This document shows positions 23,601 to 57,131 of a stretch of DNA of 64,000 bases, one piece after another. This stretch comes from Antedon mediterranea (Eukaryota > Animalia > Echinodermata). The stretch spans positions 3,400,201-3,464,200 of the forward strand of contig NC_092670.1 of NCBI RefSeq assembly GCF_964355755.1. The letters are read 5' to 3'. Numbering within the stretch: the first letter of the stretch is position 1; each line of letters opens with the position of its first letter. The position numbers and the translations under genes were made by a program. Below the pieces are notes generated by a model. That model saw only the letters and a list, made by a program, of their open reading frames with translations. It was not told where the DNA came from and ran no database searches.

Positions 23601-24590
23601 TAGAACATGATAAGATCTAACTTGGGTGACTGAGGTGGGACCCCTACATTTAACACATTCAGACTAGGTGGGTACTAGAACATAAGATAAGATCTAACTT
23701 GGGTCACTGAGGTAGGACCCCTACATTTAACACATTCAGACTAGGTGGGTACTAGAACATAAGATAAGATCTAACTTGGGTCACTGAGGTGGGACCCCTA
23801 CATTTAACACATTCAGACTAGGTGGGTACTAGAATATAAGATAAGATCTAACTTGGGTCACTGAGGTAGGACCCCTACAATTAACACATTCAGACTAGGT
23901 GGGTACTAGAACATAAGATAAGATCTAACTTGGGTCACTGAGGTTGGACCCCTACATTTAACACATTCAGACTAGGTGGGTACTAGAACATAAGATAAGA
24001 AGATCTAACTTGGGTCACTGAGGTTGGACCCCTACAATTAACACATTCAGACTAGGTGGGTACTAGAACATAAGATAAGATCTAACTTGGGTCATTGAGG
24101 TGGGACCCCTACAATTAACACATTCAGACTAGGTGGGTACTAGAACATAAGATAAGATCTAACTTGGGTCACTGAGGTGGGACCCCTATATTTAACACAT
24201 TCAGACTAGGTGGGTACTAGAATATAAGATAAGATCTAACTTGGGTCATTGAGGTGGGACCCCTACAATTAACACATTCAAACTAGGTGGGTACTAGAAC
24301 ATAAGATAAGATCTAACTTGGGTCACTGAGGTGGGACCCCTACATTTAACACATTCAGACTAGGTGGGTACTAGAACATAAGATAAGATCTAACTTGGGT
24401 CATTGAGGTGGGACCCCTACATTTAACACATTCAGACTAGGTGGGTACTAGAACATAAGATAAGATCTAACTTGGGTCACTGAGGTGGGACCCCTACATT
24501 TAACACATTCAGACTAGGTGGGTACTAGAACATAAGATAAGATCTAACTTGGGTCACTGAGGTGAAACTCCTGCATTTAACATATTCAGG
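23601..24590. repeat. 77-bp tandem array, ~13 copies
   Basis: Unit tagaacataagataagatctaacttgggtcactgaggtgggacccctacatttaacacattcagactaggtgggtac. Confidence 0.95.
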
Positions 24591-25347: not shown

Positions 25348-25910
25348 TCAATTATCTAAACTTGTCAATGCATTAACTTCATTAATCATTTCATATTCCC
25401 TAAGTTTCTCAATGAATTCATTCATCTTCTCTCCTTCTGTGAGATACCCTTCCATTTCTAATCTTAGAATTAAAGAATACGGATCAGTTACTTCACTAAT
25501 GCCATAAAATCGTCCAATGGTTTTCATGTTTTTAAAGCTTACCTTTTTACAAAATTTTAACAATTTTATACGATGATCTGAAAAGGTTTCAATTTGAACA
25601 TCTTCAAATTTTGGTACATGCCATTTTGGCTTTATCACTTCTTCAACACCACCCATCCCACACAATTTAATCAATTGGATTAGAACACGTATGTCAGTAC
25701 ATTTGATAACTCCAGGAAGGATAAGCAAGCTAATTAGTTCATGTGTATTTTCCGCCCCCTGGATATCGAAAAGTGTCATTTCACAATTCGGCCTATTCAT
25801 GAAGTCGCTAATCACCATTTTCATCTTGTTTAAACATTTTCCTCGGCCATGTGTGTCACACCAATTAGATACCCCTGTTATCAATTCGTTGAAGTCCGGG
25901 CGTGACAATT
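25348..25910 (-). CDS. Terminal exon: tandem death-effector-domain-like (death fold) region
   Basis: ORF 25348..25908 shows two helical units (FNELITGVSNW...LIQLIKLCG and FSDHRIKLLKF...LILRLEMEGYL) resembling DEDs. The exon is solid; the domain name is an inference. Confidence 0.7.
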
Positions 25911-28900
25911 CTAAAACAAAGATAGTAGACGAGTTTATAAATTTTAAATGACGTATTTCTCGTAGTGTGAATGGTGAATTTGACCATTAACTCCAGATTC
26001 ATATCATTTCATAGGATAGGCCCAGCTGATGTACACATTTAATTTTGTAAAAAGTGTCGTCGACAATATATATATTTCCAATATATTTACTGTAATTCAA
26101 CCAATGTAATTGAGGTATTGGGCAGAGTCAGAGTCAAAACCTATACAGAGATAAATTAATTGCCTTTTGGAATTAGTTTGAACACTGATATGAGGGTATG
26201 TTCAAATCCATGGAGTTATGCTTTCATATCACAAGCAAGGTTATAATTATAATTATCCTCTGAAGTGTCAAGTTTCCGGTATGCAAGAGTAAATTTTATT
26301 TCAAAATCATTGGTGCATGACTTTCATATCGTAAGTGTTGTACACTAATCTTGTACCTCAAGCTGTAGTAACAAACAAAAGGTCATTATTGTATCAGGTG
26401 GCTTCTACCAATCTTTTACTGGTTCAGACCGCATGGAATCCTATGTCGTGTATAATACGAACACAACCCTGTAGGTCTGAATATGCCCTGAATGCTTCTT
26501 CAAACAATGCACAGTAATTAATGTCAAAGAAAACAATTTAAAGGAGGGATAAACTGGTTTGAAAACATGAACAATGCGCAAATTAAAATTGTAATGTCTC
26601 AATTTACAAATTGTGACAATTGCCACCACTCAAATGTTACATTTGAAAAAAATGCATTGAAAATTGTCAACAAGTGTGTTCATTCAAGCCAAATTGAATT
26701 TATATTAGGAAATTGTAACATTTGTAATTTTAAATACCTGTTAGTTTTATTTGTTTTTCTTTAGGTCTTTCCTCCACAACATTCTTCTGAAACTTATCAG
26801 CAAGATCTTTTTGTCCATGTTCTCTTAGAGCCTCACACAATACATCAAGTTGATTCAATTTACTACTAATGTTCCTCCAAAATTTCAGAATTTCTTCTGG
26901 AGATTTCATAGTTGTAACTTCAGACAATTCCAAGCCCAAAAGAACACCTAACTGTTCACAGTTAACAGTTTCTTCAGATACTTTCCAAATAATTGAATCA
27001 TCCACATAACCTTATAAAATAGCAAAAATAAAGATAAATTCATCCAACAGTAAATGAATTGATTAAGTTTTCAAATATATGATCCTTCAATTTATAATGT
27101 CATAATAAAATCTACAAAATCATTACCTTGGAGATGAGACTGTGGCGGTATAGCTGTAAAAATAGATATGTATTTATCAACAAAATGTTCACAAGGTATT
27201 ATTTGTTTGAAGATTGTTATTAGTTATTACAAGTTCTACAGTATGCTATAGATATATTATATATTTTAAAACTGTTTATTCTTAAAATTTACTTACATTC
27301 AACATCAGTCTGTGAAGTAGCTATAAAAAAGAAATAAATATTAAATAAATGTAATTTCATCTTATATGGTATTACCATAGCGAAACGTATTGTTGCATTA
27401 ATGTGCATATGGCTGAAAAAATATTGTACCGTCCATTTCCCAATTTTTAATTAAATGCTTTTTATTTTAATATTAAGAACAGTAAAATATTTGACAAAGC
27501 AATAAATCTGGTTACTTACATCTTGGTATTACTTTATTTCCAAATAATTTACGGTAAAGTTTCACTTTCATTTGATTGCTTCCACAAGGTAACACATCTT
27601 TGTCAAACTCGCGAATAACATGCATGTGAGCATTTTGAATGTTTGGACTACATGCACAAGGGATGTACATCCTTACTTCAAGACCTCGTGCTCCAGTCTG
27701 ACTGAACACTTTTAATTCTGTTTGAAGGAAACGAAGCACCTAAAAAATGGCATTTTACAAAATGTTTAAAATACTGGAAAATATAAAATCAATATTCTCA
27801 ATCAATATTACTATGAAAATTGAATCCTAAACAAATGTTGAATAAATGCAAATTATTTTAACAATGGTGGCCTTTTATTATAGGATAAAAAGTACTTATT
27901 ATATTAAAACACTTTATTTATATTATTTTTATGAATAGTTTTAAAGTAATATTCCTAATGAAATCTTTCATAGATTGTTCACTCATAAATATTTAGAACT
28001 AAAATTAATGTATTCTGTATATCTCTTTTGTTTGTTACCACTATTTACTATTACCTTCTTACAGACTTTAGGCTGTGGTTTCTCATCTTTTGTACGCTGC
28101 CGTTTTTTTTGCTTATCAGTATTGAAGCTCTTTGTTCTGACTATTGTTGTCTACAATATCAAAATGATCAAAATTGTTAGTGGTAGTTTTTTAAAATTTA
28201 TTATTTCAATTTTATGTGGTGGAAACAATTATAAATCTCACTCATTTTAATATTGTACAATATATACACTTTAAAATTCTTGAGCTTTTCCAACTTGTAT
28301 CAATTATTGATATAAAGTTTGCGATACACCACGTATATTAGTTTCTATTGAGTTTCTCAAAGTTTCGATCAATATGCTTTGAACGTCCTCAGAAGTCACA
28401 ATGCAGGAAGTCCAGGAAAGTGGGAATATAAGTGAAATAGGTTGGGGCTGGTGTGAAAGCTACACATTTACCTGTAACATACGACAATGCTTAATGGTAG
28501 CCACATATAAAATGACTTGATGATTGGCATCAATGTTCAATTCTACATGCTCATAGGATAGGTGCCCAATTCCATAGTCTTCCATTTGAAATTTCTCAAT
28601 GAACTTTGTTGCAGCACGTTGGAAAAGATCGTCTGGAAGATAGCTACCAAAATCATGAAATAGAGAAATTGCACGCTTTTCTTCAAATTTAGGTGGTTGT
28701 GAGGCATGTGGTTTCAAACGTGAAAGAACGTAGAACATTTTTTCATTATTCTGTGTAAACAAAAAATTATTTAAAAACTAGTAGATCTGTAGGCTATATA
28801 TAGGCTAGAAAATTAAAATATTAATATGACATTAGTATCAATACCTTTGTATTTTTTTGTTCACACACTAATCCAAACTTTTGCATGAGAGACACAAAGA

Positions 28901-31900
28901 ATGTTAATGTCTCATCAGAATCACAGATCTTCTCCCACAGATGTTTTAGCAATCCACCTTTTAAAATGCCTTTTTCCAGCATCCTCCAAGCTGGTCTCAT
29001 AGCTGGTACCTATTATTTTACAAAAATAGAATATAATTAAAATTTTAATTTATTAATTCAGAGTAACATTGGTAGGCCTATAATTGATTTTTTTTTCCTG
29101 TTCTAATATATAAACATCTCATGACCTGTAGGCTATGTTTTGTTTGTCTTTATTGCAGTTCACAATATTTATGGTAAGCAGAATGACAAAGTGGATTTGT
29201 AGACTCATGTCTGCCAAAGCTACTCAGGCCAAGTTGAAATAATGTATTGATCTTTGAGTTCATATGATTGTATGATGGGTACCTATATCTCAGAGAAGTT
29301 ATTTCCAATCAAAATTTCAAACATTTATTAAACAAATTTAATTTTGAAGCATGTCATTATGTTGCTGCACGTCAGTATGCAAAACATTGTTTTGTATTGA
29401 AATATATTTATTGCTAACCATATCTTTATTGTCTATGACAGTGATGATTGTCTTAAACATGTCAACTAGTTGCATCAAATCTACAACTATTATATCTCTT
29501 AGTGCCTCATCATCTGGGTAATAGAGAATCACGCCGATGTCATGTAAATACTCAAGCAGAACTTTGTGACCTTCTGTTACTTTACAGACTTCTTTGAGTA
29601 CTTCATCTTGAATCTGTTAAAAAAAATAGATTGATTAAAACCATATGACAATTCTAAAACAATTATAATAAAAAAACAGTTTATTTAATATACTATCAAT
29701 TTTCAAATAGTCTTCTGGATTACAAAACCTGCTCTCAAAACATTGTGTACTAGTATATTTAGAATGTAATTCCTCTATTTTTTATATTTTCCCAACTTTA
29801 ATGTAACAGTACATAGTTATAAATACATACTATAGAGATTTAACTTTATATATCAAGTACATCTACTGGTGAATATGGTAGTTGACTGAAAGCTTAATAT
29901 ATTTATTTATTCTGTCTTTATACTGAACTAGATGGTACGCTCGCTTCGCTCGCGTACCATCTAGGTCGTGCCCACAGATGGTTCTCGAATACATAATAAT
30001 TTCAGCGTTAAAAAACTGGCGATTTCAAATGTACGTACCGCAGGACAATAATACATGTCGTGTACAGGAACGAATAAATAGACACTGTGATTTATGTACT
30101 CAACTAAAATCAGCACCCTATTACTTCCGAAAGAGAAACTTGTCACAAATAAGACCAATTGTTTAAGTCAAATTTAAACAAACTTAATTTGTGTTTTGTA
30201 TGTAACATTAGGGTTGAGGGATGGGGAAGAGGATGGGTGCAAAGAGGAACAATGTTAAAATATATTCTTTATCCATTTAGTAACGAAATATTAATTGCTT
30301 TCATGTTTTACAAATAATATACCACTAAACACAGTAAAACATTGCGATGTAATACTTTGTTGAAACTATCACCGTCCTAGTCGATTGAAATAGTACAGAA
30401 CATGTAACGATACATCACCAAGACGTGTATATGTTTATAATACTGTATAATGTAAAACAATTTGTGAAAACCACCTCTATTCGGGGAAAATCATAAATTC
30501 GATTTAATCGTCAATAAATATTAAATTATCTAACTCAACTTAATTAGTAGGCCTAATGGTTTTCAATTGTTTCTTAGAGCCAATTCATACTTAAGTTGGT
30601 TCCTACCCTACCCACCAAAGTTGTTCTGCGTTTAGGGCATGTGATGTACCGTAGGCCTATTCTCTACTGGTTTTACAACGCTACTCATGCCAGTGAGGGA
30701 AAGGTGATGATGTGGGTGGTTTAACTGCAATAATAAAGATTTGTACATAATATACGGCGAGTGAAAACGCTAGCTCATTATCCGTTTAAAAAAAAATTAT
30801 ATCCAACCTCTGCAGCACAGATTGAAAACAAAAATGGATCGAATTTCGAGTATACAGTACTGTACTTGCCTTTATATTACGACGCCTGAGGGAATAGACA
30901 CTTGTGAAACAGAGATTGGAATGTTCCATTCATCACAAATCAATACATTTGTATAATCGTATATTAAATCTATCAAAATAGTATTTTTTTAAGAAAATCG
31001 GCCTGTCTTCAACATTATGATGCTGTACTCTAGCTGTTCAACCAGTTTTCAGCTATTAAAAACAATTATCATAGGAGGAGATAGGAAAATGCGAAGCCTC
31101 CTCGTATTTTTGTGGCGGGTATTTTTCAAGATGGACATCCATTAGACAGTGTATACCACGATCGGAAAACACCCCTATTTGGGGCAAATCGTTGAACCTA
31201 AATTCGTTTTAATCGTCAATAACTAATTACCTAACTCAATTTAATTAGTAAACAGGGTTACATCAGATGGTTAAAATCAGTACCGAAAGTATGAACGAAC
31301 TTTATATACCATCGAGTAGAAATTCTAGAAATAAACCGAGATTTACCGAATTTTGCCCTTACGTAAATTTATATATAGATGACACTTTCAGTGCTAAAGC
31401 ATTGATTTCCAAAGTGGTTCAGTAGAGAAAAATTAACAATATAATAAAATAAAAAGTAATTTACATTAGTAGACACATTTACAAAAAGGTAACTATCTAT
31501 AAAACATACAGTATATATAAAAAAAATGGAGGGAATTAAAGGTAAAAGGTACTTAATCAGTAATAATATTAAAATCAATCCAAAATATTATTTTGGATTG
31601 AATTTTTAAAAAGTGTCATAGATTTAATATAAAAAAAATAATTGTTTTATTCAGGCCTAGGATTTTAATGAGGAATTTTATTTTTGTGCCTTAATGCTAT
31701 GTGTGATTATGCTATTTTCACTACAACCATCTGTATGCAAATTTGGTGGAATGGTTATGTAACCAGCCTTTCAACTAATAACAATAGTTTCAGTTGATTA
31801 ACAATAGAACAGCAATGCCAAAAACAAACCTCCAAAATTTAATGGAGTGGTCCTTGACTACATATCTATCTGTATTTTCATTTTGGTAAAGGTCTTTCAA

Positions 31901-34900
31901 TAACTTTTGAGTAATCCTGCTAACAAACAAACAAACCGACAAACAAACAGACACATGCGATTGACTACATAAACTTCCTTGGCGGAGGTAAATAATTGAT
32001 TGGTAAGAAAATGTTAATATGAACCTATAGATGGCTATAAATTTACCTCTTACATCACACCACCTGTACATTTTCAGATGATTAAAAAGTAGCAATGTAT
32101 ACCGAAAATGGAGATCTGACTAATCAATATAGAACAAATACTGTAAACCTTATTTGTGAATCTTTCTTTATAAAAGAAATTGCCACATTATTAATAATTC
32201 ATTCAATTATTAATATTGAACGCTATTGTCTATAAATTCTTGCACCTAACCTCAGAAGTTGGTAAATAGATGTGCTTCTTTCTGCTGTGGATTTCTTGTT
32301 GAACTCGCAGCCATTTTATTGGCAAAGTGCGAATCATTTTCTTTGACAAATCCAGTATTTGTTTCATGATGGCAGAAGCATTGCTCTGTTCAAATGGTAC
32401 ACTGTTTTCAATGGTAAAAATAGTTGAACACACCATAGTTTCATATGGTTTGTCTTTTAGGGCTTCCCAAATTTTATTTTCTATTTCTTTAACCTGAAAG
32501 AAAGATATACATTTGTTATGTAGTTTCTAATATTTCTTATTTTAATCAGATTAATTAGAATAATCAAAAGACTATTTAGATAGTGATTGCTAAACGTTGT
32601 GATCCAGTTTTAGGATTAAAAAAATAGAAGATTGAATCCACTGCCTATGAAAAAAGTTTCTGCATTGTTGTGTCATGGTGATTTCTCTATGGTAGAGTCA
32701 ACTCACCTGTTCTTTCCTTTCTTCTTCAGTTCCTTTAAGGCCATTTAAATGTGTACCTATCAGTAATACAGGAGGACAAGGCTGACCATTTATCTTTGCG
32801 TCAGGTCTACTGTTTGTGTATATGGACTGAATCCAAGAAAGAATGAACTCCAGATTTGTCATTCGATGGTCATAATTGTTTCCCTAAATTTTATAAGTAT
32901 ATATGATAACAAAAAAATGTTTGTAGAACACTCAATTTTAATTTCTTTGATCATGTATAATACTGTATACAACAATTGAAAAAAACGTAATTGTTCAATC
33001 TATTGTTATTCATTTATTCAGTAATGGAGGAAAAGAATGTTCATTTATTAATGTAGTTTGTGTTGAATTGTCTATGGATAAAAAGATGTGAGAAGCTAAT
33101 TGATAAGTCTTAAAACTTTAAGATGTGTTCAGAGCAAAGGTATACATTTTTCACTATAAAGCAATCACAATCAAGGAATTGAAAATAGTGTTTAAAAACT
33201 AATAAAATTCAGCTTACAGTTGTTGGATCCAAAACTTTAGCTTGGGCATCGAGATCATCACAAAGGTTGAATACTACGCATACAACAGCAAAAGATACCA
33301 TGAAGATCTATGAGATCAATTAAACAGTGTATTAAAAAAATGGTGAATATAAAAAAATGCTTGATTATCAATGAAATTTAAATTTGGAAATGCAGTGTTT
33401 GTTTTTCATAGTGTTTTAATTTTTAGATTAAAAAAATAGCTGAGTCTAGACTACTACTAAATTTATTACAGGTTTGCCATATGATAGATATTTGTTGCTA
33501 GAATTCATAAGAATAATATTTTACTTGTTTATTTTTTTACTACTGTATATTAGTGTTGTCTTATTAGAGGAATTGTGGGGAATATAGTTATATTACCATG
33601 CTGGGTCATGCAGGCTCCATGCCGGCATCAGGTAAAATATCCAGTATATACCAGCTGAAAGTTGGTATATACTGGATATTCCGATCCCTGCTGTAGATAG
33701 TTATGCTGGTAACGATACAGGCAGTGGCATAACGCAGAGGCCTGATGCCCCTGGATTAGGAACCCCAGGCCCTCCAAGGCTGGAGGCCTAGGGCGTTTTT
33801 AGCCCTTTTTGACATATTTTAATGCCTGTATTTTCCTCTGGACACTGCCCAGGGCCCCCACATGCTCCGGGGCTCCTGGTTTTAGCCAGTGAGTGTTCAT
33901 AGCCATTACGCCACTGGATGCAGGCATCATTGGTCTCTTGAATTTGAATTGGTTGTTGTTTTTTGGCAGTTGGTGAGCATTCAATTATTTCCCTGTTTAC
34001 CATTCAGAATCTCTTCCTGAATGCTACCAATGATCTGAGCATTTACACTACCATTCAAAATATCTCCCTGAATTTTTATTTATTTATTTATTTAGGTTTA
34101 AAAAACACATACAAAACAGCAGCCATTGGCTGATAACGTTTGTTTACAATCAATATACATATATAATTAAAAGTAAAAGAGGCACAATTACAAACAGCAT
34201 AGAAAAATAACTATATATTATAAAACACAAAATACAGTATTATTCGTTCATAAAATTGAGTACGTCATTATTATTATTATTATTTAAGATTATTATTAGT
34301 ATATAAATTATTAAAATTATTATATAAAAGGTCGAAACGGCATCGAGAAAGTGAGAAATAATCATGGAAATCAACCCATATCAGTTAGCATTAATAAACT
34401 TAACAATCGTAGGTATGGCAGACCTTTGGTATCGTTCAGTTTTACACCTGGGGGGAAGGAGACTTCCGGTACTAGTTGTATTAGACCTAAGGGTTCTCTT
34501 CTGCCAGCGGCAAGGAGGTAGCATGTCTCGAAAACAGTTGGACTTGAGTAACCCCCTCCCAAAGGACAACACAAGAGTGTCTCTCCTTGCCTCGAGAGAA
34601 GGTAACCCTGTAACCTCTAGGGCATTGTCATAGGAAATGTAGGTAGCACCTAACATTATTCGACATGCTCTTTTCTGGATGGTCTCAATGCTGCTGGCCA
34701 TTTTTTTGGTAATAGCACCATGCCATACCTGGCAAGCGTATTCCAAGATGGGCCTATAATACTGGCATTTTGCTTCCACGCCTGTGAGAAAAGGGCTTTA
34801 TGTACTTACCCGCTGCATCACATGATAAATTTGTTGTCCTCCGAAATCCCAGATGTTCATCACAAACTTGTCGCTAGTCACCTTGTCATCACTCCCTTCT

Positions 34901-37900
34901 TTCTGAAACTCAACTATTAATTTTTCAATTTCTGACGGAATCTTTATCTGGTCATCTCTTCCTTCTTTCTCAATCTCTATCTTTGAAGGAATCTTTGTCT
35001 GGAGTTTTTCTTTCTCTATATATTCATTAAAATAAATTAAAATTAAACATCCAATAGCATGTTTAATATGTATGTCATTTTTCTAGGCCTTTTATTAGGA
35101 TAATTTATTTTAGGATTCTAATTATTTTAGCAATGGTGATTATAATTATTAATTAATATAGAAAAGTGCATTGTTAGCCAAGATCCCAACAGAATAACAC
35201 ATTGTCTGATGATTTCAGGTTCCAAATTAGCTTCCCTAATAATTCTACTCGGCTTTTCGTTCCCTACTCAAAAAGAAGAGTTGTCGATATAGTGCCTTTG
35301 CAATTGCCACGTATCTTGAAAGCACTCTTCGTCAATTAGTGAGGATGGAATTTTAAGATATTCGTCTTTCATTGAATTTGTTTTGAGGATTTTTGTATAA
35401 TATTTATTTTGTTTAATACTAATATACAAATATAGTTAACAGAGCTAAAGCTAACAGAGGTGCCTTGAAAATAGGTCTGGTTGTGTTTTAGACACAAAGG
35501 CCCATAGTTTTAATGAAACAAAGTTTGAAAAAAAATTTGAAATAGGCAAAGTATATAAAACATTAAAAGACACTAACTGTTCTAAAATCTTTAATTAAAT
35601 TAATCCACCTTTTCCATCTTAAATCAAATATGAAATTCCAGGCCACAAGTCAAAAACCCATGTAAAAGTCAGTGCTTAGTTTTGGTAGAGCAGACAGTGA
35701 AATATTAGGTGAAATGTAATAATAATGCACTTAAAATTCCTATTAACATTTTTACTTACCGTCATCCATTTGGCTTTCTTCTGTTTTAGTTGATTGTGCT
35801 GGATTTTCTTTCTCCATATGTTTCACAAGTGTTTTTTGGGGAGAATTTTCATTGCCAGAAGGCTGTTTTGCTGATGCTGTTGTAACCTCTGCTTGTAGCA
35901 CACTATTCTTGTTATCAGAAGCATTTTCTGTTGATGCTGTTTCACGTTTTTCTTCTCGCACATCACCATCAGAACCATTTTGCTTTTCTTTCAGTTGTTT
36001 TGCCACATTTCTAGCAACTGCTTCCTCATACATTTCAGAAGCTTGAGCTTTAAAAAAATAAAAATTGATTTTGTATATTATACTTGGATACTATGAATAT
36101 GTTAATTATTATTAAACATTTTAAAAGGAAGAAACACACATATCCATGGTAATTACAGAATAAATCTAGTTCTGTGTTGTACCAAAAATAATTTAGGTAA
36201 AAAGAAGCAAGGTAAGAATGGTATCAATTTATTTTAAATTTGTTTAAATTAAAGCAGTAATCAAGAAATTGTATGTAAAACAGATTATTATATAAATAAC
36301 ATCCATAAAACATGACAATATAACTTCATAATCAGATTAAAGAATTAAGGAATTTCTGTGAAGCAGCTTTCATCAGATAGCTGACAGCGCAGCAAGAAAA
36401 ATATGGGAGGCTTTGTCAAAAAAGAAATGTTCGCAAACGTGTGTTGATAAATGTTGGCTAGTTTCGTAAGTATACTTCTTTAAAAAAAATTCAATTTCCA
36501 GTAAGCAGAACAATAAATGCAAAATAAACATGGGTGGATGGAGTACCATGAAAATTGCCAATAGTACAAACAATTAAGCACTATCAAAGTGGCTCTCCAA
36601 TACTTCAAACCAAAAAAATATATAAGGGTAAGGGGGTTAACAGTATTAAGTTTCGAATAGTACTTGGAATCCAGCACAACACATTTTTAAACAGGATAAA
36701 ATGGAACAAGTCTGGGACAAAGTCTTTGGTGCTAACTGGGTTAATAATTTAGTATTTTGCATCTTTTTTTGGTTTAATTTGCATGTTAATGTATACTTTC
36801 TGTTTCTTGCCATATTGTTTCATCTGCATCATCTTGAGAACACACTGTTTTTGTTGTTGCTATGGCATCAGTTATTTCATGCTTTGATTTAAAACTACAG
36901 AAAAAAATGAATATTATTATTTCACTTCAATAGCCATACAATATATATATAAACCCATCTTAATCATTCAATGTTTTTCAAGTCAGCCTTTTGGGATTAT
37001 ATTAATATTATTATTAGTGTATTTATAACAAAAATGAATATACAAAGAGTAATATTTTTCAGTTGGCTCATAAAGTATGTTTTGGTGTCATCAGTTAATT
37101 AAAAGTAAATTCCCATAAATTGATAATGATAAAATGCCTACAATTGAGAAGAATATGTTTAAATGTATATTAAAACTAAAATGTACACATAGATTATGTC
37201 CCGTGAGTCAAGATAGATTTTCAACTCAAACCCCTTTAATAGTAGTGATATTTGGGGGAAAACAAATATTTTTGGTTTTTTTAATTATTTGTCATTCAGA
37301 GCATTGGGGTCTTGGTGTATGTTTTTAATTTAATAAATTGTTTTAAACAACATTGATACCACAATTTTCTTACCTTTTCCTTAGTAATGAATTGATAGTA
37401 GAAGTTTTTCCTACTCCCTCAAGACCTACAAAAATAACTCTGCCCTGTTTAACTCCAGTTTTCCCTTCTTCCAGGGCTTCATTGAATGCTCTAACTGCTT
37501 CTGGTCCTCGAGCCCGTATCTCAATTGGAGTGGAATCTTTAAAAAATAAGTATTTAATAGTACTTTTACAATAAAGTTATTATATATTTATTATTACTAT
37601 GCATTCATATTGGACACTTAATTAATACCTCTCACTTTTTTTTAATTTATAATCCTTGTTAATTTGCTTTTAGAATGATTTTATAATGCACGATTTCTAT
37701 AGGTTATTTCATTAAAATAACCGATACATTTTATTTTGTAAATAATAGTTGATAATAATAATATAAAATAGAATACTTTAATAAATACCAATATCTTACC
37801 ATCAAAGTTGCTGAGCCTTTGTAATATACTTGGATGTTGTAACATTGTAGTAGTACCAAGAAAACCAACTGCAAACTCTCTTGCCACCTTTAGATTCTTA

Positions 37901-40900
37901 CTTTCTCTTATCATCTTCCATTCATTATCATCCAAAGGAGTAAGTAATTGCCTTACATCTCCTGTACTTTCACTCTCTGTGTGTTCACTTTCACATAATT
38001 TGCACAAGTAAAATCCTACCAATGACTCTGCTATCAACTTGTGAGGAGGCATGAATATCCGTTCAAAGTTGGATTTTGAAATTGGTGCTTCTTCATAAAC
38101 AAATCCAAGTTTCACGGACATGTCAACCAAATCTGTACTCGTATGTTTATCATTAAAATCTTTCATCTTTATTAAAAGTTGATTTACTTTTAGGCTATCA
38201 TACATACATTTTCCCAATAAAATCATAGCATTTACATACTTTGCTGGAGTGTCTTCAAATTTAGAAAGCTTTGCGAATTGGTTTTGTTTGTTGAACTGAT
38301 TTAAAATGCTATGAAATATTTCCTTAAAAAGATTAGCTTTATCTTTAGGAAGACTTTGATTGTCTTCCCATAGAATACAAATTGAAAGAAGTAGCATTGG
38401 ATTTTTGCACATTGAATATACGTCCTCGTGTTTTCGTTGCCTACCCTGATACATAATATCTAATTCTCTTCTAAGGGATTTTCCCATTTCTGGTTTTTCA
38501 AAATACTCAAAGTGTTTGTTAATATACTTCCCTATGCTCTCTTCATTAAATCCCTTAACTCTTACATGTATGTTACACTCTTTTTTGAATTCATCTATGT
38601 TTTCTGACCGGGAAGTAAGTATCACAGTACTTTTTTTTAAAGAGTTTTTTCTGAAAAGACTAATTACGCTTTGATTATTGAATCTCAATTCCTCTAATCC
38701 GTCAAGTAGCAACACAACTTTATTTTCATGTTTCTTTATAAATTTCTTAATTACCCGTGCATCTTTTGGGAGATCTGTGTCTAAATTAAAATCTGTCATA
38801 TCCAGTTGCTTTGCAATTAAATCACATATATCTTCATCTTTTTCCAAATCCCTTACACATAAAAGAAATACAATTTTACCTTCAAAGATATTGAATTTAT
38901 TAAGTGTAGCCCATGTGTATGATATATGCCTTAATATGGTAGTTTTTCCAATACCTCCCTGTCCTTCAATGAGAGCTTTACATCCAGGTGTGGAGCTAAT
39001 TACATCTATCACTTCTTCTAATGTTGTTGGTTTGCTGGTTTCTGTATTGTTTTCACGTTCTATAAGCAGTTCCATATCAGTAAACATCTGTGAAATGTCA
39101 ACTTTGTATTTCTCACGCATTGTTGCAGGTGTAAATATACTGGCCTGGATACACTTGTCCTTTTGTATGTGAATCAGATATGTTTGTATTATTTCTAAAA
39201 ACAAGGAAATATTTTGGGTATTGCTAAACTGCGCAAACCAAGCGCAAACCTAAAAAACCCTGCGCAAACCTCCTCCAAATAACTTATTATTGGTTCTATC
39301 ATGACCAGGACTATAATTTATGAAAAAAAAATTATGAAATTGCGGTTAAAGTTGGTGAAAAACATCATTTTTTGGGTAAAATGTAAGATTTTACAGTGTA
39401 AATGGCGCAAACCTAAAAAAAACCTGCGCAAACCTCCTCCAAATCACTTATTATTGGTTCTATCATGACTAAGACTATCATAGCAGGTAATTTATGAAAA
39501 AAAAAATAATGAAATTGCTGTAAGTTGGCTTTTTTTGGGAGAAAAACATCATTTTTTTGGGTAAAATGTCAGATTTTACAGTGTCAGCCAAGCCAACTTA
39601 CAGTAATTTCATAATTTTTTTTTCATAAATTACTTGCTATGATAGTCCATGTCATGATAGAAGCAATAATAAGTGATTTGGAGGAGGTTTGCGCAGATTT
39701 TTTTTAGGTTTGCGCGATTTACACTGTAAAATCTGACATTTTACCCAAACAAGGCCAACAGCCATTAAGTCGCGTGCTACAATGCATAGTGATACCGGAC
39801 CGACAGACAAACAGACCGACAGACAGACAGACCGACAGACAGACGGACCGACCGACATAGTGAACTATACTGACCGAAATTACTGAACATGTTTAAAAAT
39901 GTTGAAATGTTTAAAAACATTTATATTTTTTTAATTTACACGTGCGTAGCCTGTCACTTTTGTAATTTCGAGTTGAAAAGTAAGTCAAGAAAACAGAAAT
40001 CGGGTAAAAAGAGTGCGCAATAACATTTAACGCGCAGTGCGTGCGCAAAAATCTGCGCACTCATGGCAATTTTGTAAACGCTTAAAATTGCCTGAAACGT
40101 ACTCTTATTTCATCGAAAATAAATTTTGAAAATTTTAAGCGCGCGTGCGCATGCGCTACGCACGTAATTGTATTGCCATATGATGATTTATGCCCTGAAA
40201 TTTATGAGTACCAAATTTTATTTAATTGTGATTCATGGTTGTTGTTAAGATATGATTACAAACGTGATTTCGTTAAATCGTGCGTAGACCGCGTAATTTT
40301 TTATTGCGCACCGTGAAAACATAACCACATCGATTCCTGGCCATAAGGAATATTCTGTGAAAAATTGACTTAGCTAGATTAAACTGATATGAAGATAAGG
40401 TCATAAAACGATAAAACGCATAGTGATACCGGACCGACAGACAGACCGACAGACAGACAGACCGACCGACCGACATAGTGAACTATAGAGTCGCTTCCAC
40501 GCGACTAAAAATGATGTTTTTTGCCCCAAAAATAAGCCAACTTACAGTAACTAGATGGTACGCTCGCTTCGCTCGTGTACCATCTAGTTCGTGCCCACAG
40601 ATGGTTCTCGAATACTGTACATAGTAATTTCAACGTAAAAAAACTGGCGATTTCAAATGTACGTACGGCAGGACTATAAAACATTGTCGTTTACAGAAAC
40701 AAATAAGTAGACACAATGATTTATGTAGTCAACCAAAATTAGCACCTAGAAACTTGTCACAAAATGAGTCGACATTTGTTATTTGGACTCACTTAAACAA
40801 ACCCAATTTTGTTAAATTATTCTTTATATTTCTTTATTATCCAATCATTAACGAAATATTTTTTTTATAGGCCTATAAATAATATACCACTAAATAGAGT

Positions 40901-43900: not shown

Positions 43901-46900
43901 TCACTGTGAGTGTGGGTAGCTCCTACTTTTAGATTATAAACACATAATAATATATACTTTATTACTGTCAGTTGTTTCTCAACGTTTGTATTAATTAATA
44001 ATTACAAAAATATAAACGTATTAGTGGTCTTTAAATGTACTTTACTATTTCAATCGACCATGAGACAGTGACACTTTTAATAAAGTATTAAATCGGAAAT
44101 GTTTTACTCTATTTAGTGGTATATTATTTATAGGCCTATATAAAAAAAATATTTCGTTACTGATTGGATAATAAAGAAATATAAAGAATAATTTAACAAA
44201 ATTGGGTTTGTTTAAATGAGTCCAATAACAAATTTCGACTCATTTTGTGACAAGTTTCTAGGTGCTAATTTTTGTTGACTACATAAATCATTATGTCTAT
44301 TTATTTGTTTCTGTAAACGACAATGTTTTATAGTCCTGCCGTACGTACATTTGAAATCGCCAGTTTTTTTACGCTGAAATTACTATGTATTCGAGAACCA
44401 TCGAGCGAAGCGAGCGTACCATCTAGTTATTAAAATTAATAAAATTACTGGGTATTCGAGAACCATCTGTAGGCACGAACTAGATGGTACGCGAGCGAAG
44501 CAAGCGTACAATCTAGTTAATTTAAATTATCTAGCTTCATTCCTTGAATAGTTTTTGTCACGCAATCATAAATAAGCTTTATAGAGTGAGTGTGACCCAA
44601 TATAATTTTTAATTACGTTAATAATTTTTATAATTTGGAACTATCTATATATAAATTTACGTAAGGGCAAAAATCGGTAAATCGCGCGTTATTTCTAGAA
44701 TATTTACTCGATGGTTGGTTCGTACTTTCGGTACTGATTTTAACCACCTGATGTAACCCTGTTTACTAATAAAATTGAGTTAGATAATTAGTTACTGACG
44801 ATTAAAACGAATTTAGGTTCAACGATTTGCCCCAAATAGGGGTGTTTTCTAATCGTGGTATACACTGTCTAATGGATGTCAATTTGAAAAATACCCGCAC
44901 ACAATAATACGAGGACACTTCGCATTTTCCTATCCCCTCCTACGATAATTGTTTTTAATAGCTGAAAACCGGTTGAACAGTTCGAGTACAGCGTCATAAT
45001 GTTGAAGACAGGTCGATTTTCTTTAAAAAATGCTATTTTGATAGATTTAATATACGTTTTTACGGGGTTTATACAAATGTATTGATTTGCGATGAATGGA
45101 ACATTCCAATCTCTGTTCCACAAGTGTTATTCCCTCAGGCGTCGTAAAGGCAAGTACTGTATACTCATAACAGAAATTCGATCCATTTTATTTTTATTCT
45201 GTGCTGCAGAGGTTGGATATATATATTTTTTAACGGATAATGAGCTAGCGTTTTCAGTCGCCGTACATTATGTACAAATCTTTAATTGCAGTTAAACCAC
45301 CCACATCATCAACCTTCCCTCACTGGCATGAGTAGCGTAGTGGTACGAAGGATCAACAACAACTTTGGTGGGTAGGGTAGGAACCAACTTAAGTATGAAT
45401 TGGCTCTAGAAACAATTGAAAACCATTAGGCCTACTAATTAAGTTGAGTTAGATAATTTAATATTTATTAACGATTAAATCGAATTTATGATTTTCCCCG
45501 AATAGAGGTGGTTTTCACAAATTGTTTTAACATTATATATAAACATACGTCGTAGTGTATCGTTACATGTACTGTACTATTTCAATCGACTACGACGGTG
45601 ATAGTTTCAACAAAGTATTTACATCGCAATGTTTTTACTGTGTTTAGTGGTATATTATTTGTAAAACATAAAAACAATTAATATTTCGTTACAAAATAAA
45701 GAATATATTTAAAAATTGTTCCTCTTTGCACCCATCCTCCCCATCCCTCAACCATAATGCTACATACAGAACACAAATTAAGTTTGTTTAAATTTGACTT
45801 AAACAATTGGTCTCATTTTGTGACAAGTTTCTCTTTCTGAAGTAATTCCCAGGGTGCTAATTTTAGTTGAGTACATAAATCACAGTGTCTATTTATTCCT
45901 TCCTGTATTATTGTCCTGCATTATTGTACATTTGAAATCGCCAGTTTTTTAACGCTGAAATTATTATGTATTCGAGAACCATCTGTGGGCCCGACCTAGA
46001 TGGTACGCGTACGCGTACCATCTAGTAATTTAAAATATACTCAACAGAGGGCAGCAAAGGATTTTTATGACATAAACCTAAAACTTGTATAAGTGTGAAA
46101 GTGAAAATATTCTTATTAAAAACTAAAATATATAACATTAAGAAATATTGTTATTTATCTTAACATCTCTCTTTATCCATATCAATGACGGTTTGGTGCA
46201 CCGTATAGGCATACGAACCTAATTAGCCTATTGAAAGAATATTGAAAGAGCGGATATGTTTACTATGGTAGGAATGCCATGCTGTAGACAAGGATCCCCT
46301 TTACTGTACTTGTAAAATTATCATTAAATCCAAAATCGGTTTATAAATTCTAGCATCTTATATAGTTAATTTACTTCTTCAGTTTGTTTGATTTTTATTA
46401 CTATCATAATGATGCCATTTGTATTCAAACATATACTTCAGAAGTAAAAATTAAAACTTTAGGGTTAATTACTATAGATAATTGGGCATACTGATTATTA
46501 TTATAGGTGATATATACGAAAGCCCATTAATGCCATTTTAAGTATATGTTTTTCGAACGTAATCCGTTATAACGAATTAGTAATTCGTTTGAACGGATTA
46601 ATAATCTGTTTAAACGAATTAGTAATCCGTTCAAACGAATTGCAACATATACAACAAGTGCCATTTAAAGTATATGTTGTAATTCGTTTGAACGGATTAC
46701 TAATCCGTTCAAACAAATTACTAATTTGTTTAAACGGATTACTAATTTGTTCAAACGGATTACTAATCCGTTCAAACGAATTACTAATTTGTTTAAACGG
46801 ATTACTAATTCGTTCAAACGAATTACTAATTTGTTTAAACGGATTAGTAATCCGTTCAAACAAATTACTAATTCGTTCAAACGAATTAGTAATCCGTTTG

Positions 46901-47595
46901 AACAAATTAGTAATCCGTTTAAACAAATTAGTAATTTGTTTGAACGGATTAGTAATCCGTTTAAACAAATTAGTAATTCGTTTGAACGGATTAGTAATCC
47001 GTTTGAACAAATTAGTAATCCGTTTAAACAAATTAGTAATTTGTTTGAACGGATTAGTAATCCGTTCAAACGAATTACAACATATACTTTAAATGGCACT
47101 TGTTGTATATGTTGCAATTCGTTTGAACGGATTACTAATTCGTTTGAACAGATTATTAATCCGTTCAAACGAATTACTAATTCGTTATAACGGATTACGT
47201 TCGAAAAACATATACTTCAAATGGCATTAATGGGCTTTCGTAGATATACAGTATGAATTAAAAGTATTCAACATGTTTGATATTATAAGTGATACACTGT
47301 AGGCCTACAGTCATACCTGTATGACCCCAAGGGTAATGAATGTCATTTACTTACATCCAATACTGATAAAATAGTTCAGAAACCTTATAATTGTGTACAA
47401 AGCAATTATTGTAGCAGCTTGATTGGCCACCTTAGAAATTCAATGATTATATTGTATAATTATTGTTGCAGTTGATTTATTTTTGACAATCAGGGGATTC
47501 AATAACTGAATTATAAAATGGATCTGATTTGCATTATTATAGTAAACATTACAAGTAAACTCACCTTCTTCTTCTGATTTAACCTCTTTGTTCAT
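25348..47595 (-). CDS. Spliced gene (18 coding exons, ~1510 aa): NACHT - Roc - COR - Death domain - tandem DED-like protein
   Basis: Exons 47565-47595, 37800-39194, 37374-37536, 36797-36894, 35760-36047, 34810-35015, 33218-33307, 32707-32883, 32251-32493, 29419-29613, 28845-29009, 28472-28750, 28055-28150, 27520-27739, 27297-27320, 27127-27153, 26738-27010, 25348-25910. All have GT-AG boundaries with compatible phases, sum to 4533 nt and have no internal stop. The start codon and the join between NACHT and Roc exons are inferred. Confidence 0.8.
26738..27010 (-). CDS. Death domain exon (phase 1-1)
   Basis: CEQLGVLLGLELSEV...EILKFWRN...LDVLCEALREHGQKDLADKF fits the DD pattern LG..LGL / L..W / L..AL...G..DLA. 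Confidence 0.85.
27127..27153 (-). CDS. 27-nt linker microexon (phase 1-1)
   Basis: CAG acceptor, GTAATG donor; reads SIPPQSHLQ. Confidence 0.7.
27297..27320 (-). CDS. 24-nt linker microexon (phase 1-1)
   Basis: TAG acceptor after a T tract, GTAAGT donor; reads STSQTDVE. Confidence 0.7.
27520..27739 (-). CDS. C-terminal COR exon with a Cys/His cluster
   Basis: YIPCACSPNIQNAHMH...LPCG; matches ORF 27512..27739. Confidence 0.82.
28055..28150 (-). CDS. COR-B exon with a basic stretch
   Basis: TTIVRTKSFNTDKQKKRQRTKDEKPQPKVCKK; 96 nt, phase 0-0. Confidence 0.8.
28472..28750 (-). CDS. COR exon (A/B boundary)
   Basis: FYVLSRLK...FHDFGSYLPDDLFQR; matches ORF 28460..28762. Confidence 0.88.
28845..29009 (-). 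CDS. COR exon
   Basis: WRMLEKGILKGGLLKHLW...SLMQKFGLVC; 165 nt. Confidence 0.88.
29419..29613 (-). CDS. COR-A exon
   Basis: LLEYLHDIGVILYYPDDEALRDIIVVDLMQLVDMFKTII, the COR LxxLHxxGxILY signature. Confidence 0.92.
29928..31379 (-). mobile_element. Non-autonomous Helitron (subtype A)
   Basis: 5' TCTATATAT end, 3' hairpin gatggtacgcgagcgaagcgagcgtaccatc plus CTAG, inserted between A and T with no TSD. Confidence 0.9.
31835..31992. repeat. Short unclassified interspersed repeat with (caaa/caga)n
   Basis: Microsatellite followed by acttccttggcggaggtaa; boundaries approximate. Confidence 0.45.
32251..32493 (-). CDS. Roc G5 and start of COR
   Basis: IFTIENS...LPIKWLRVQQEI; 243 nt. Confidence 0.88.
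32707..32883 (-). CDS. Roc exon with G4 motif
   Basis: TNLEFILSWIQSIYTNS...PPVLLIGTHLNGL; 177 nt; GTGAGT donor. Confidence 0.9.
33218..33307 (-). CDS. Roc exon (strand after switch II)
   Basis: IFMVSFAVVCVVFNLCDDLDAQAKVLDPTT; 90 nt, phase 0-0. Confidence 0.85.
33722..33916. mobile_element. hAT MITE
   Basis: CAGTGGC termini; TSD gatacagg / gatgcagg. Confidence 0.8.
34074..34765 (-). mobile_element. 5'-truncated LINE (CR1/L2 group) 3' fragment
   Basis: RPILEYACQVWH...IETIQKRACRI...LPSLEARR is an ORF2 C-terminus; (TAAA)n tail at ~34074-34094. Confidence 0.88.
34810..35015 (-). CDS. Roc exon with G3 motif
   Basis: ...KFVMNIWDFGGQQIYHVMQR; WDFGGQ at 34834-34851; GTAAGT donor. Confidence 0.92.
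35760..36047 (-). CDS. Low-complexity insertion exon inside Roc, 288 nt, phase 1-1
   Basis: Matches ORF 35752..36033 (E/K/S/T/N-rich); GTAAG donor. Confidence 0.8.
36797..36894 (-). CDS. Roc exon 2 (G2 / switch I region)
   Basis: FKSKHEITDAIATTKTVCSQDDADETIWQETE. The acceptor is good but the GTATAC donor is weak. Confidence 0.7.
37374..37536 (-). CDS. Roc domain exon 1 (G1 / P-loop)
   Basis: PIEIRARGPEAVRAFNEALEEGKTGVKQGRVIFVGLEGVGKTSTINSLL; G1 at 37400-37426. Confidence 0.9.
37800..39194 (-). CDS. NACHT (NLR-type STAND NTPase) exon, 1395 nt, phase 1-1
   Basis: Walker A GQGGIGKT (38941-38964), Walker B VVLLLDGLEE (DGLEE at 38689-38703), sensor-1 ILTSR, NP motif CKNPMLL and winged-helix PHKLIAE. 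TAG acceptor at 39195-39197, GTAAG donor at 37799. Confidence 0.92.
39748..40509 (-). mobile_element. DINE-1/HINE-like (Helentron-associated) element
   Basis: Hairpin gtcgcttccacgcgac, (gaca/gacc)n microsatellites, inserted in an A/T run of the host. Confidence 0.65.
40551..41756 (-). mobile_element. Non-autonomous Helitron (subtype B)
   Basis: Same ends as subtype A. Removing it restores cttacagtaa|tttcataa, which is intact at ~39597. Confidence 0.92.
42192..44516 (+). mobile_element. Non-autonomous Helitron (A-like, diverged) containing a nested copy
   Basis: TC start at 42192; hairpin plus CTAG end at 44516. Confidence 0.85.
43242..44426 (+). mobile_element. Non-autonomous Helitron (subtype B), nested
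   Basis: TC start, CTAG end; reverse complement of 40551-41756; 3' hairpin partly deleted. Confidence 0.88.
44644..46025 (+). mobile_element. Non-autonomous Helitron (subtype A)
   Basis: Reverse complement of 29928-31379; hairpin plus CTAG end. Confidence 0.9.
46515..47242. mobile_element. Palindromic MITE with internal 21-bp repeats and 6-bp TSD
   Basis: TACGAAAGCCCATTAATGCCATTT termini; TSD gatata at 46509-46514 and 47243-47248. Confidence 0.88.
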
Positions 47596-48320: not shown

Positions 48321-49364
48321 CTTTTGTTTATCTATCGGCAAACGCGAGCGTTTTCACACGAAAATTATACAGTCAATATCATCGTACTCAAGAATTTGCT
48401 GGATTTTATATGTTTAATGACAGGGGACACGATAATTACGCGAAAATTACTCATTCAATATCATCGTTCTCGAGGATATACGATTTACGATCCTTGCAGC
48501 GGTAGTCATGTGATGCAGTTTCAACCAATCACGTTCACGTATTTACATAGGCTATGTAATATAATTCAATAATGTGTGCAATATGAATGATAGATAGTTT
48601 GTGTGAATAGTACATAATGAATAGTAAATCCTATTCATCTCCAAAAATTTATTTTAAAACTTGCTTGAAAAAGTAAATTTATTTTCTATTACCTGCCATG
48701 TTGTAAACTTTCTGTTTTCGTTTCTAAAAAAACAAGAAATGTTGCATTAAAGGATAAATCAATCAATAATACAGGATAAATCAATTAAAAAATATCTTAT
48801 AACAATCATATTATTAAAGAAATCATAAACTAAAGTGTTCCATAGCTCATTTAATTAATTTAACACTGTATCATAAATTCCGTTTGTTAAAGGTACGGCA
48901 AAATTGCATTACATCATAATGGGGTGGTGGTACACGTGTCATCGTATAAGGACTTTGGATTTGTTTTATCGCGAAAACAGTGATAAACCGCTTAATATTT
49001 ACTTTATGCTTCATTTATCGCTATTATCGCAGTCGTGTGTGACAAAAACTAAATGTAGCCTACGTCTGTTACTATTGAAAAGCCAAAACATGTTGATTTT
49101 AATTCTAGAATACAGAAAACCGTTTCAAAAGAGGCCTACTACATACTATAACCTATTAGCCTTATTATATGAGTTTGTTTATGTAGGGAAAGAAAGCGGT
49201 GCCAGCTCATAGTATTTGAGGGCCCCTTGTCTGCATTTGCTTGTTGTTTATGGTCACCATCTGTAAACAAAGTTTAATAAAAAATATAAGCCTAAATAGG
49301 CCATTTAGAATAAAAATAAAACCCTCACATATTAGTCCAAGAGCATTAGTTCATAAGTATAGGC

Positions 49365-56701: not shown

Positions 56702-57131
56702 TGCTGTTTAATAATGGTCGTATAATAGTACTGAAAACTCACGTATATAGTAGGCGGTCGTTAGCCTACGGTGGTTGCTAAGTGTGAATGTGATGCGCGT
56801 CCTCGCCGGTACCGCAATGCAATTACTTCGCTGATCGGTGATATTAATTCTAGGCCTACTTGCTGATGGCCTAAAATATTGCCTTGTAGCCCAAGTAAGT
56901 AATGATTTTCTGAAGGTTCTTTGTATATTGAGTAAAATCCTCGTCGCCAATTATGTGATGTTCGGAAACAATAAACTACTAAAAACAGCTCTTTAAACAA
57001 TAAACTTTTAATTGGATCACTCGATCGTATAACGATATAACTAAACAACAACGTGTTATGTGTCACGTGACAGCTAGCGCTGTACTACAAAAGCGTGTTC
57101 AGAACAAAAATTGTGTAACTACCCTAATTTG

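Follow-up and report, generated by a model that had tools for sequence, protein, structure and literature searches.

Alternative switches in death and immunity proteins

In systems for death and immunity, the switch is described as either a STAND ATPase or a Roc-type GTPase (PMC8195603, PMC7159879), and within death systems the two are said to serve as interchangeable cores (PMC8195603). Roc-COR cycles between monomer and dimer (PMC6337361). In bacterial and invertebrate LRR-Roc-COR-effector proteins, the switch is Roc-COR and the effector at the C-terminus varies (PMC8195603, PMC5094078, PMC9334734); examples are the AP-GTPase systems and the LRR-Roc-COR-TIR proteins of sea anemones and Aplysia. 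In these systems, as the cited accounts present them, STAND NTPases and AP-GTPases substitute for each other, whereas the Antedon mediterranea locus analysed here has both in one reading frame.

DAPK1, in which an N-terminal enzyme is regulated by GTP binding (PMC6337361), offers a second parallel. Its layout, kinase-ankyrin-Roc-COR-Death, resembles that of the Antedon fusion in having a Death domain after Roc-COR, no LRRs and a catalytic module N-terminal to Roc, but in the fusion NACHT replaces the kinase and ankyrins and a tandem DED is added. This is a likeness of layout, and orthology is not claimed. A link between LRRK2 and NLRC4 has reportedly been observed in mammals (PMC5626397). A sponge gene model also carries COR and NACHT in one predicted chain, but in the reverse order, with a kinase and LRRs, and Roc is not among the domains listed for it; this model is one automated prediction and may have merged neighbouring genes. 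No paper describing NACHT-Roc-COR in this order was found in a search of mainly non-subscription literature. The architecture is apparently absent from print, save for the reversed COR and NACHT of the sponge model.

The Antedon locus and its domains

On the minus strand of the window, the whole 64,000-nucleotide stretch of DNA that was analysed, 19 exons rebuilt from the sequence are all GT-AG bordered, phase-compatible and stop-free, giving 1519 aa from the ATG at 48699. The 18 exons and approximately 1510 aa first proposed correspond exactly to the reading from the ATG at 47595 (18 exons, 1510 aa). The more likely coding start is the 7-nt exon at 48699, as in RefSeq XP_071952566. The features are as follows.

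48693..48699, minus strand: exon 1, coding part, 7 nt with start codon; N-terminus matches RefSeq XP_071952566
47565..47615, minus strand: exon 2, short linker exon containing ATG 47595; XP_071952566 identical
37800..39194, minus strand: exon 3, 1395 nt, phase 1-1, NACHT NBD-HD1-WHD and start of HD2 (Pfam, motifs, fold)
38964-38938, minus strand: Walker A, in exon 3
38712-38689, minus strand: Walker B, in exon 3
37537..37799, minus strand: 263-bp intron from NACHT exon to Roc exon; used by RefSeq XP_071946662, bridged by a second copy
37374..37536, minus strand: exon 4, Roc alpha-0 helix and G1 P-loop (37426-37400) (Pfam, PDB matches, motifs)
36797..36894, minus strand: exon 5, Roc G2 region (exon chain, family alignment)
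35760..36047, minus strand: exon 6, charged low-complexity insert within Roc (exon chain)
34810..35015, minus strand: exon 7, Roc G3 (34851-34834) (Pfam, motif)
33218..33307, minus strand: exon 8, Roc (exon chain, RefSeq)
32707..32883, minus strand: exon 9, Roc G4 (32760-32743) (family alignment, motif)
32251..32493, minus strand: exon 10, Roc G5 and COR start (Pfam, alignment, motif)
29419..29613, minus strand: exon 11, COR-A (Pfam)
28845..29009, minus strand: exon 12, COR-A (Pfam)
28472..28750, minus strand: exon 13, COR second half, by position and family conservation; no Pfam COR-B match
28055..28150, minus strand: exon 14 (RefSeq)
27520..27739, minus strand: exon 15, where the conserved Roc-COR block ends (family conservation)
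27297..27320, minus strand: exon 16, 24-nt linker (RefSeq)
27127..27153, minus strand: exon 17, 27-nt linker (RefSeq)
26738..27010, minus strand: exon 18, Death domain (PF00531 6.4e-5, 23.4 bits against a cut-off of 22.6)
25348..25910, minus strand: exon 19, tandem death effector domains and stop codon (profile, structure)

The predicted chain runs NACHT, Roc, COR, Death domain and tandem DED, without LRRs. Searches of the window by tblastn with all fetched proteins returned no further exons, no LRR exon (as had been predicted) and no death-fold exon upstream of the NACHT exon. Exon 2 is of the linker type that precedes NACHT in Antedon NLRs, and RefSeq protein P0173 starts with a peptide similar to that of exon 2.

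Exon 3 matches Pfam NACHT at 1.3e-23 in a single-exon search and contains the STAND NTPase features: Walker A (aa 97-105), Walker B (181-188) with its second acidic residue, sensor 1, HD1 and WHD. A D-to-E change in Walker B stays acidic and is common to 2 of 62 crinoid proteins. The predicted fold is that of a NACHT (pLDDT 86), with NOD2 and NLRC4 as best structural matches (E about 1e-17). Similarity to paralogous NLRs ends at 37855, so most of HD2 is absent; a novel 18-residue tail then runs to the donor. Reading this tail as a decayed LRR end was rejected, its best local score of 35 being equalled in 33 of 100 shuffles. To call the NACHT itself intact would therefore overstate the case: its motifs are present, but the domain is cut just after the winged helix. 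The complete HD2 and C-terminal LRRs of a bona fide NLR are missing, as is its N-terminal death-fold effector, only 19 aa preceding the NACHT exon, as in XP_071952566.

The remainder of the chain is a predicted Roco GTPase of the LRRK2 type, with a Roc bearing G1-G5 and an adjoining COR. In single exons, Pfam detects COR-A (3.4e-7), Death (6.4e-5) and Roc (1.6e-3), the last being weak and split over exons. In the joined RefSeq XP_071946662, Roc reaches 3.1e-12, COR-A follows immediately at 8.3e-15 (55 bits against a cut-off of 35.3), and Death scores 2.3e-3, below its cut-off. The Roc motifs (G1 at aa 522-530, G2 at 545-550, G3 at 723-728, G4 at 808-813 and G5 at 852-856) agree with 20 aligned relatives, the G2 and G5 labels being an assignment made here, and Roc matches the prokaryotic Roco structures 4wnr and 3dpu in the PDB. 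Pfam searches of 14 exons and of XP_071946662 found no kinase such as the N-terminal calmodulin-regulated one of the DAPK1 group. Exon 13 was rejected as a peptidase, its ESM Atlas matches being sub-threshold only. Exon 19 holds two death-effector folds in tandem, of the caspase-8 and cFLIP type (AF2 pLDDT 91): its best structural match is the caspase-8 tDED (Z 17.8, rmsd 2.5, 165 residues), with profile matches to cFLIP (9e-6) and caspase-8 (2e-4). It had no direct Pfam DED match, and on its own returned nothing useful from phmmer against the PDB. Pfam, motifs and structure together recover every element originally predicted for this half, namely Roc G1-G5, COR, a Death domain and a second death-fold region.

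The junction between the NACHT and Roc exons

The predicted 263-bp intron between the halves (37799-37537) joins phase 1 to phase 1, and RefSeq uses the same intron. Nevertheless, RefSeq draws two models at this locus. XP_071952566 (P0178; 280 aa) is identical to aa 1-270. It covers exons 1 and 2 together with the first half of exon 3, the NACHT exon, and a weak cryptic intron takes it to its end. XP_071946662 (P0137; 1157 aa) has its start within that same exon and matches aa 363-1519 at 100% identity. It is thus conceivable, though rather unlikely, that the NACHT ATPase core and Roc-COR never occur in one mature protein. The gene might be split as annotated, into a 280-aa NACHT fragment and a 1157-aa WHD-Roc-COR-DD-tDED protein; exon 2 might be joined to exon 4, which is phase-compatible and gives a plain Roco; or exon 3 might continue to the stop at 37681.

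Annotation favours separate proteins, since a 99.8% identical duplicate, XP_071952373 (P0110), is annotated only from Met577, the first Met past the junction, in exon 6. Skipping is permitted by the phase 1-1 symmetry of exon 3, which means that exon 2 could splice directly to exon 4. Weak constraint on the NACHT lineage points the same way, as does the finding that 0 of 185 fetched proteins combine NACHT with Roc-COR, in searches bound by word seeds and length windows, so that distant fusions in other phyla could be missed. However, exon 3 is uninterrupted between the two RefSeq models, with 1395 nt free of stops and frameshifts, and XP_071946662 itself splices exon 3 to exon 4. The terminal intron of XP_071952566 has very poor splice signals, its stop-reaching acceptor scoring -3.1 against 3.8-14.0 for 17 training acceptors. 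The junction sites score 8.1 (donor) and 7.6 (acceptor), the donor being tied with other GT sites in exon 3 (7.1-8.2). Exon 4 has no Met ahead of its P-loop, and Roc therefore needs an upstream phase-1 exon.

Raw DNA contigs (three runs from one DNA sample) contain a second copy, with about 5% divergence, that spans the junction and keeps both junction splice sites. In the read-through frame, all five of its changes alter the protein and one is a stop, which breaks that frame. In a rough simulation that let exon 3 evolve neutrally from the time when the two copies with the junction diverged, it kept its open frame in 5-29% of runs. The second copy differs from the window at 18 of 231 nt, with 3 gaps, in NACHT segment 37891-38121, against 12 of 263 in the intron; because the NACHT segment differs more than the intron, this copy shows no sign of purifying selection on NACHT.

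Run X5, taken by guess to be RNA, has a loose end at 37389 resembling a paralog's spliced exon 4-5 join. It holds only traces over 37538-37825, with no 37800/37536 joint among those listed, and is uninformative on expression. The window's own junction-intron letters are absent among the contigs listed for X1, X2 and X4, possibly through filtering, which carries no weight.

Ancestry of the halves and the proposed role of the hybrid

The two halves have separate ancestry. In a quick tree, the NACHT sister is the Antedon NACHT-LRR protein XP_071964220 (P0001; 84% identity, support 99), and by FastTree the Roc-COR sister is the tDED-Roc-COR-tDED protein XP_071944699 (P0143; 85%, support 99). The fusion's tDED is nearer to Roco tDEDs (40-43% to XP_071944699) than to those of NLRs (28% or less). 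Crinoid NLRs (tDED-NACHT-LRR; nearest XP_071964220) share with the fusion NBD-HD1-WHD, the linker exon type and the tandem DED family, but the fusion has no N-terminal effector, a cut HD2, no LRRs and its tDED at the far C-terminus. The crinoid Rocos XP_071944699, XP_071950759 (P0168; Ank-Death-Roc-COR-Death) and XP_071945975 (P0113; TAZ-KIX-Roc-COR-tDED) have the Roc-COR core, the G motifs and the C-terminal death folds in common with it and, as it does, lack a kinase and an LRR array; in the fusion, the N-terminal slot carries the NACHT exon instead. Across this family the N-terminal modules vary (ankyrin, Death, tandem DED, TAZ-KIX, NLR LRR tail), and the TAZ-KIX piece may resemble an integrated decoy. 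Having death folds at the C-terminus and no LRRs is usual in the family, so the death folds rightly predicted at this C-terminus are not peculiar to the gene. These relatives are 'uncharacterized' database entries, and no paper on them was found in the literature searched. By sequence comparison, the gene is a young NLR-to-Roco chimera whose Roc-COR-death-fold body belongs to the crinoid Roco family; it probably arose recently, in one lineage, as a hybrid between two immune gene families that are expanding.

Lineage-specific changes in Roc-COR avoid conserved columns (p<=0.0005), whereas in NACHT such avoidance is not clear (p=0.08). Changes in HD1-WHD sit in more conserved columns than those of the sister (p=0.047); the NBD alone does not differ from it (11 vs 7 changes, p=0.41), and 117 of 124 strongly conserved NACHT positions are kept. 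Constraint on NACHT appears relaxed relative to sister paralogs, and Roc-COR is clearly constrained.

We favour, with a probability of roughly 50%, the reading that the locus encodes one hybrid protein acting as a Roco-type death-signalling scaffold. The NLR 5' part (the linker exon and a NACHT exon cut after the winged helix) would occupy the swappable N-terminal slot of a crinoid Roco, the rest being the Roco gene body, Roc-COR-Death-tandem DED. Through its GTP cycle, Roc-COR would switch the protein between monomeric and dimeric states and thereby bring the Death and tandem DED domains at the C-terminus into clusters; these domains may in turn recruit FADD-like or caspase-8-like partners. 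The immune or cell-death role proposed at the outset is likely. NACHT would be a young docking, oligomerisation or decoy module, joining, for example, paralogous NLR rings. This is more likely than a second ligand-gated switch, because NACHT lacks LRRs and most of HD2 and its constraint seems relaxed.

We doubt that this is a true two-switch protein, with DED and Death clustering under the joint control of ATP-driven oligomerisation by NACHT and of the GTP cycle of Roc-COR, and with Roc-COR in place of the HD2-LRR brake. Such control would fit the presence of all NACHT and Roc nucleotide motifs, the still acidic Walker B and the NOD2- and NLRC4-like fold. Mouse NLRC4 is activated when HD2 or the LRRs are deleted (PMC7583971), and a NACHT that lacks HD2 would thus require some other brake. 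In effector type, the tDED matches what crinoid NLRs carry N-terminally, and a second Antedon Roco, XP_071954574 (P0139), has the LRR tail of an NLR at its start (78% identity over 36 aa). Yet the fusion is known from a single lineage and was not found among the Anneissia proteins returned, its HD1-WHD changes fall in the more conserved columns, and both halves are still close to unfused paralogs, which leaves little time for co-adaptation. The original prediction of two co-equal switches is weakened by the loss of most of HD2 and by the unequal constraint on the halves, and joint control is possible but unsupported. A chimeric assembly at the junction, or a fresh silent pseudogene at this locus, is very improbable: the region is repeat-rich, with near-identical duplicates (XP_071952373) and many NLR paralogs, but the separately assembled second copy spans the same junction, Roc-COR avoids change in conserved columns, and 19 of 19 exons are open with canonical splice sites.

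We speculate, as an unlikely extension, that NLR genes have been grafted onto Roco genes more than once in Antedon. The result would be a novel immune receptor class in which a STAND ATPase is followed in series by a Roc-COR GTPase, the latter taking over as brake from HD2-LRR, and in which the tandem DED that recruits caspases has been relocated to the C-terminal end. This gene would be the LRR-less form, and the XP_071954574 locus a possible full NACHT-LRR-Roc-COR form.

The finding concerns one gene, perhaps in two or three copies, in one genus. With both switches in one natural chain, the coupling of their nucleotide cycles could be studied, and one could ask if Roc-COR is able to hold a NACHT in check. 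The gene, even if it is no more than a young chimera, shows that exons have been shuffled between the NLR and Roco families of crinoids, and it draws attention to a crinoid Roco family, so far undescribed, whose N-terminal slot accepts varied modules.

Gene model and public annotation

Rebuilding the exon chain from splice sites on the minus strand, with one exon added through a database protein, gave a final model of 19 exons, all GT-AG, that starts at the ATG 48699 (minus strand) and encodes 1519 aa. The first splice-site pass already formed an open frame of 18 exons; the database protein revealed the additional exon, 28150-28055. The original prediction had claimed 18 exons and about 1510 aa and, from the ATG at 47595, the rebuilt frame comprises 18 exons and 1510 aa. 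Its 263-bp intron between the NACHT and Roc exons was recovered at that size, with phase 1 at either side.

Exons flanking the NACHT-Roc junction (splice-site model)
39194-37800, minus strand, NACHT exon (exon 3)
37536-37374, minus strand, first Roc exon (exon 4)

Single exons matched the Pfam families NACHT (1.3e-23), COR-A and Death, and the joined RefSeq protein XP_071946662 matched Roc (3.1e-12) and COR-A (8.3e-15). The last exon alone gave no Pfam match. It resembles the N-terminal modules of crinoid NLRs, which give weak DED matches, and its profile matches cFLIP and caspase-8. The structure model of this exon (pLDDT 91) aligns with the caspase-8 tandem DED over 165 residues (Z 17.8, rmsd 2.5), with Foldseek E-values of only about 4e-3.

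Public annotation divides this locus between two Antedon mediterranea RefSeq proteins, both of which agree with the window letter for letter. XP_071946662 (1157 aa) is identical to residues 363-1519 of the model, crossing the junction by the same 263-bp intron, and XP_071952566 (280 aa) is identical to residues 1-270, then exits the frame via an intron within the NACHT exon and stops. No database protein was found to hold the full architecture. On a splice matrix trained on the gene's remaining introns (17 training acceptors self-scored, 3.8-14.0), the XP_071952566 intron has an acceptor of -3.1 and a donor of 5.1, the junction intron has sites of 8.1 and 7.6, and the junction donor is equalled in score by several further GT sites of exon 3. 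We take the split to be a probable artefact of annotation. XP_071952566 might instead come from the duplicate locus of XP_071952373, a duplicate of the Roco part that is 99.8% identical and annotated from Met577.

The surrounding DNA is rich in repeats. Possible 5′ untranslated exons, picked out by eye at 49260, 50840-50788 and 50086 (minus), precede the start codon, in the interval that separates the gene from a Ty3/gypsy-type LTR retrotransposon (50953-57106) situated 2.3 kb upstream of that codon. The element has 153-bp LTRs that are 99.3% alike, Pfam matches to protease, RT and integrase in overlapping frames, and a gag region broken by a stretch in which 205 bp are directly repeated (at 54648 and 56260). 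In intron 7, an open stretch without a Pfam match (34384-34797, minus) begins right at the exon 7 donor and resembles the 3′ terminus of LINE-type elements. One dispersed repeat family, whose copies reach about 1.5 kb and are numerous in the DNA runs, occurs in both orientations in introns 10 and 2 (29927-31380 and 40550-46026).

Tandem arrays in the window
13265-13993, 48-bp unit x 15
18052-22874, 66-bp unit x 73, 97% match
23601-24589, 77-bp unit x 12.8
46559-47198, 21-bp unit, inside intron 2

Ancestry of the parts

In a quick tree of 62 rows, from which the three RefSeq proteins of the locus and its duplicate were excluded, the NACHT exon has as its sister XP_071964220, an ordinary NACHT-LRR protein (84% identity, support 99), and the pair is nested within an Antedon expansion. 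Roc-COR is sister to XP_071944699, a tDED-Roc-COR-tDED protein (85%, support 99; FastTree, 34 rows), which is also the nearest relative of the C-terminal tDED. Exon 2 is similar to the linker ahead of NACHT in NLRs. Together, these affinities show that the gene unites the 5′ portion of an NLR gene with a Roco gene body.

The NACHT motifs had been described as intact, which holds for Walker A, Walker B and sensor 1, but the domain itself is truncated. In crinoid NLRs, the exon continues past the motif whose last residue is aa 466 and extends into HD2, followed by LRRs. Here, similarity to paralogs ends at 37855, exactly where the loose ends of paralog contigs depart from the window, and an 18-residue tail follows instead of HD2/LRR. 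Exon 3 also contains another phase-1 donor-like site at 37901 (minus, score 7.1), from which joining to Roc would also be in frame, with the novel tail dropped.

Among automated gene models, crinoid Roco N-termini vary (ankyrin, Death, tandem DED, TAZ-KIX), and the N-terminal tDED of one such model, P0133, shares 87% identity with that of an NLR. Two Roco models, XP_071954574 and XP_071954575, open with a 36-residue piece 78% identical to an NLR LRR tail, and may represent the 3′ portion of another NLR-Roco fusion, this one complete. Another, XP_071945975, joins CBP-like domains (a TAZ zinc finger and KIX) to Roc-COR-tDED, and looks like an integrated decoy, or like a merged model. The NACHT-core profile matched 123 of 185 fetched proteins and the Roc-COR profile 60; none of the 185 matched both, which only the rebuilt model did, and the fetched Anneissia japonica proteins included no fusion.

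The nearest printed item, in the accessible part of PMC12909245, is a sponge gene model, STYK-COR-DEATH-NACHT-LRRx9. In the portions available, PMC8195603 and PMC7159879 present STAND NTPases and AP-GTPases as alternatives, the Roco architectures given by PMC11378527, PMC5094078 and PMC9334734 include none with NACHT, and PMC8913654, PMC11508797 and PMC2858798 make no mention of Roc in NLRs. A term search of the available text of PMC3879445 for the latter returned 0 matches, and the accessible parts of PMC10236652 and bioRxiv 2021.06.07.447441 held nothing further on the architecture. The original prediction treated the architecture as possibly new, and we found no description of NACHT-Roc-COR in the openly available literature, which included few supplements. 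Judged from sequence, the domain order is real and apparently undescribed.

Readings of the predicted combined protein

Tandem DEDs nucleate caspase-8 filaments. Beyond the frame, domains, truncation and ancestry, which the sequence shows, our leading reading, with a probability of about one half, is that the predicted protein is a Roco-type scaffold that would cluster its Death and DED domains, and that these would recruit FADD-like or caspase-8-like partners. The NACHT would then occupy the slot that other family members give to interaction or bait modules. With GTP, Roco proteins alternate between a monomeric and a dimeric state, and DAPK1 has an N-terminal kinase under the control of GTP binding (both from the part of PMC6337361 available).

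It is unlikely that the NACHT and Roc-COR cores are absent from one common protein. Three runs of one DNA sample contain a contig across the junction (37456-38121 in X1 and X2, 37456-37836 in X4), which by its sequence is an allele or paralog of the window. This second copy retains both junction splice sites. It differs by 12 substitutions plus 1 insertion within the 263-nt intron, compared with a single substitution over 118 bases of flanking exon (Fisher p=0.05; 0.04 counting the indel). In the read-through frame, 5/5 of its changes alter the protein, one of them to a stop, which counts against the refuting case named with the original prediction, in which the NACHT exon reads to its own stop at 37681. 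The NACHT part of the second copy (37891-38121) differs at 18/231 bases with 3 gaps (net +3 bases), exceeding the divergence of the intron, and this counts against our own reading.

Genuine two-switch control by NACHT and Roc-COR is slightly less likely still. The NACHT exon is predicted to fold as NBD-HD1-WHD (pLDDT 86; best structural matches NOD2 and NLRC4), and keeps 117/124 strongly conserved positions, of which 15 other rows changed 1-11. NLRC4 is held back by HD2 and LRR, and deleting these activates it (PMC7583971, in part). In a rough column-conservation test devised after the fact, the columns that hold the 36 lineage-specific NACHT changes average 0.61 in conservation, where the background is 0.66 (p=0.08), and the sister XP_071964220 scores 0.51 (p<1e-4; difference between the two, p=0.039). 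All 8/8 reference rows (7 proteins) reach p<=0.001, and the NBD alone does not differ from that of the sister (p=0.41). This suggests that constraint on the NACHT has relaxed or shifted, chiefly in HD1-WHD. An artefact or pseudogene is highly improbable; in the same test, the Roc-COR of this gene reaches p=0.0001-0.0005.

Most likely, the gene, with its clipped NACHT, is a single product of recent shuffling that brought together two known families, both expanding, within one genus of feather stars.
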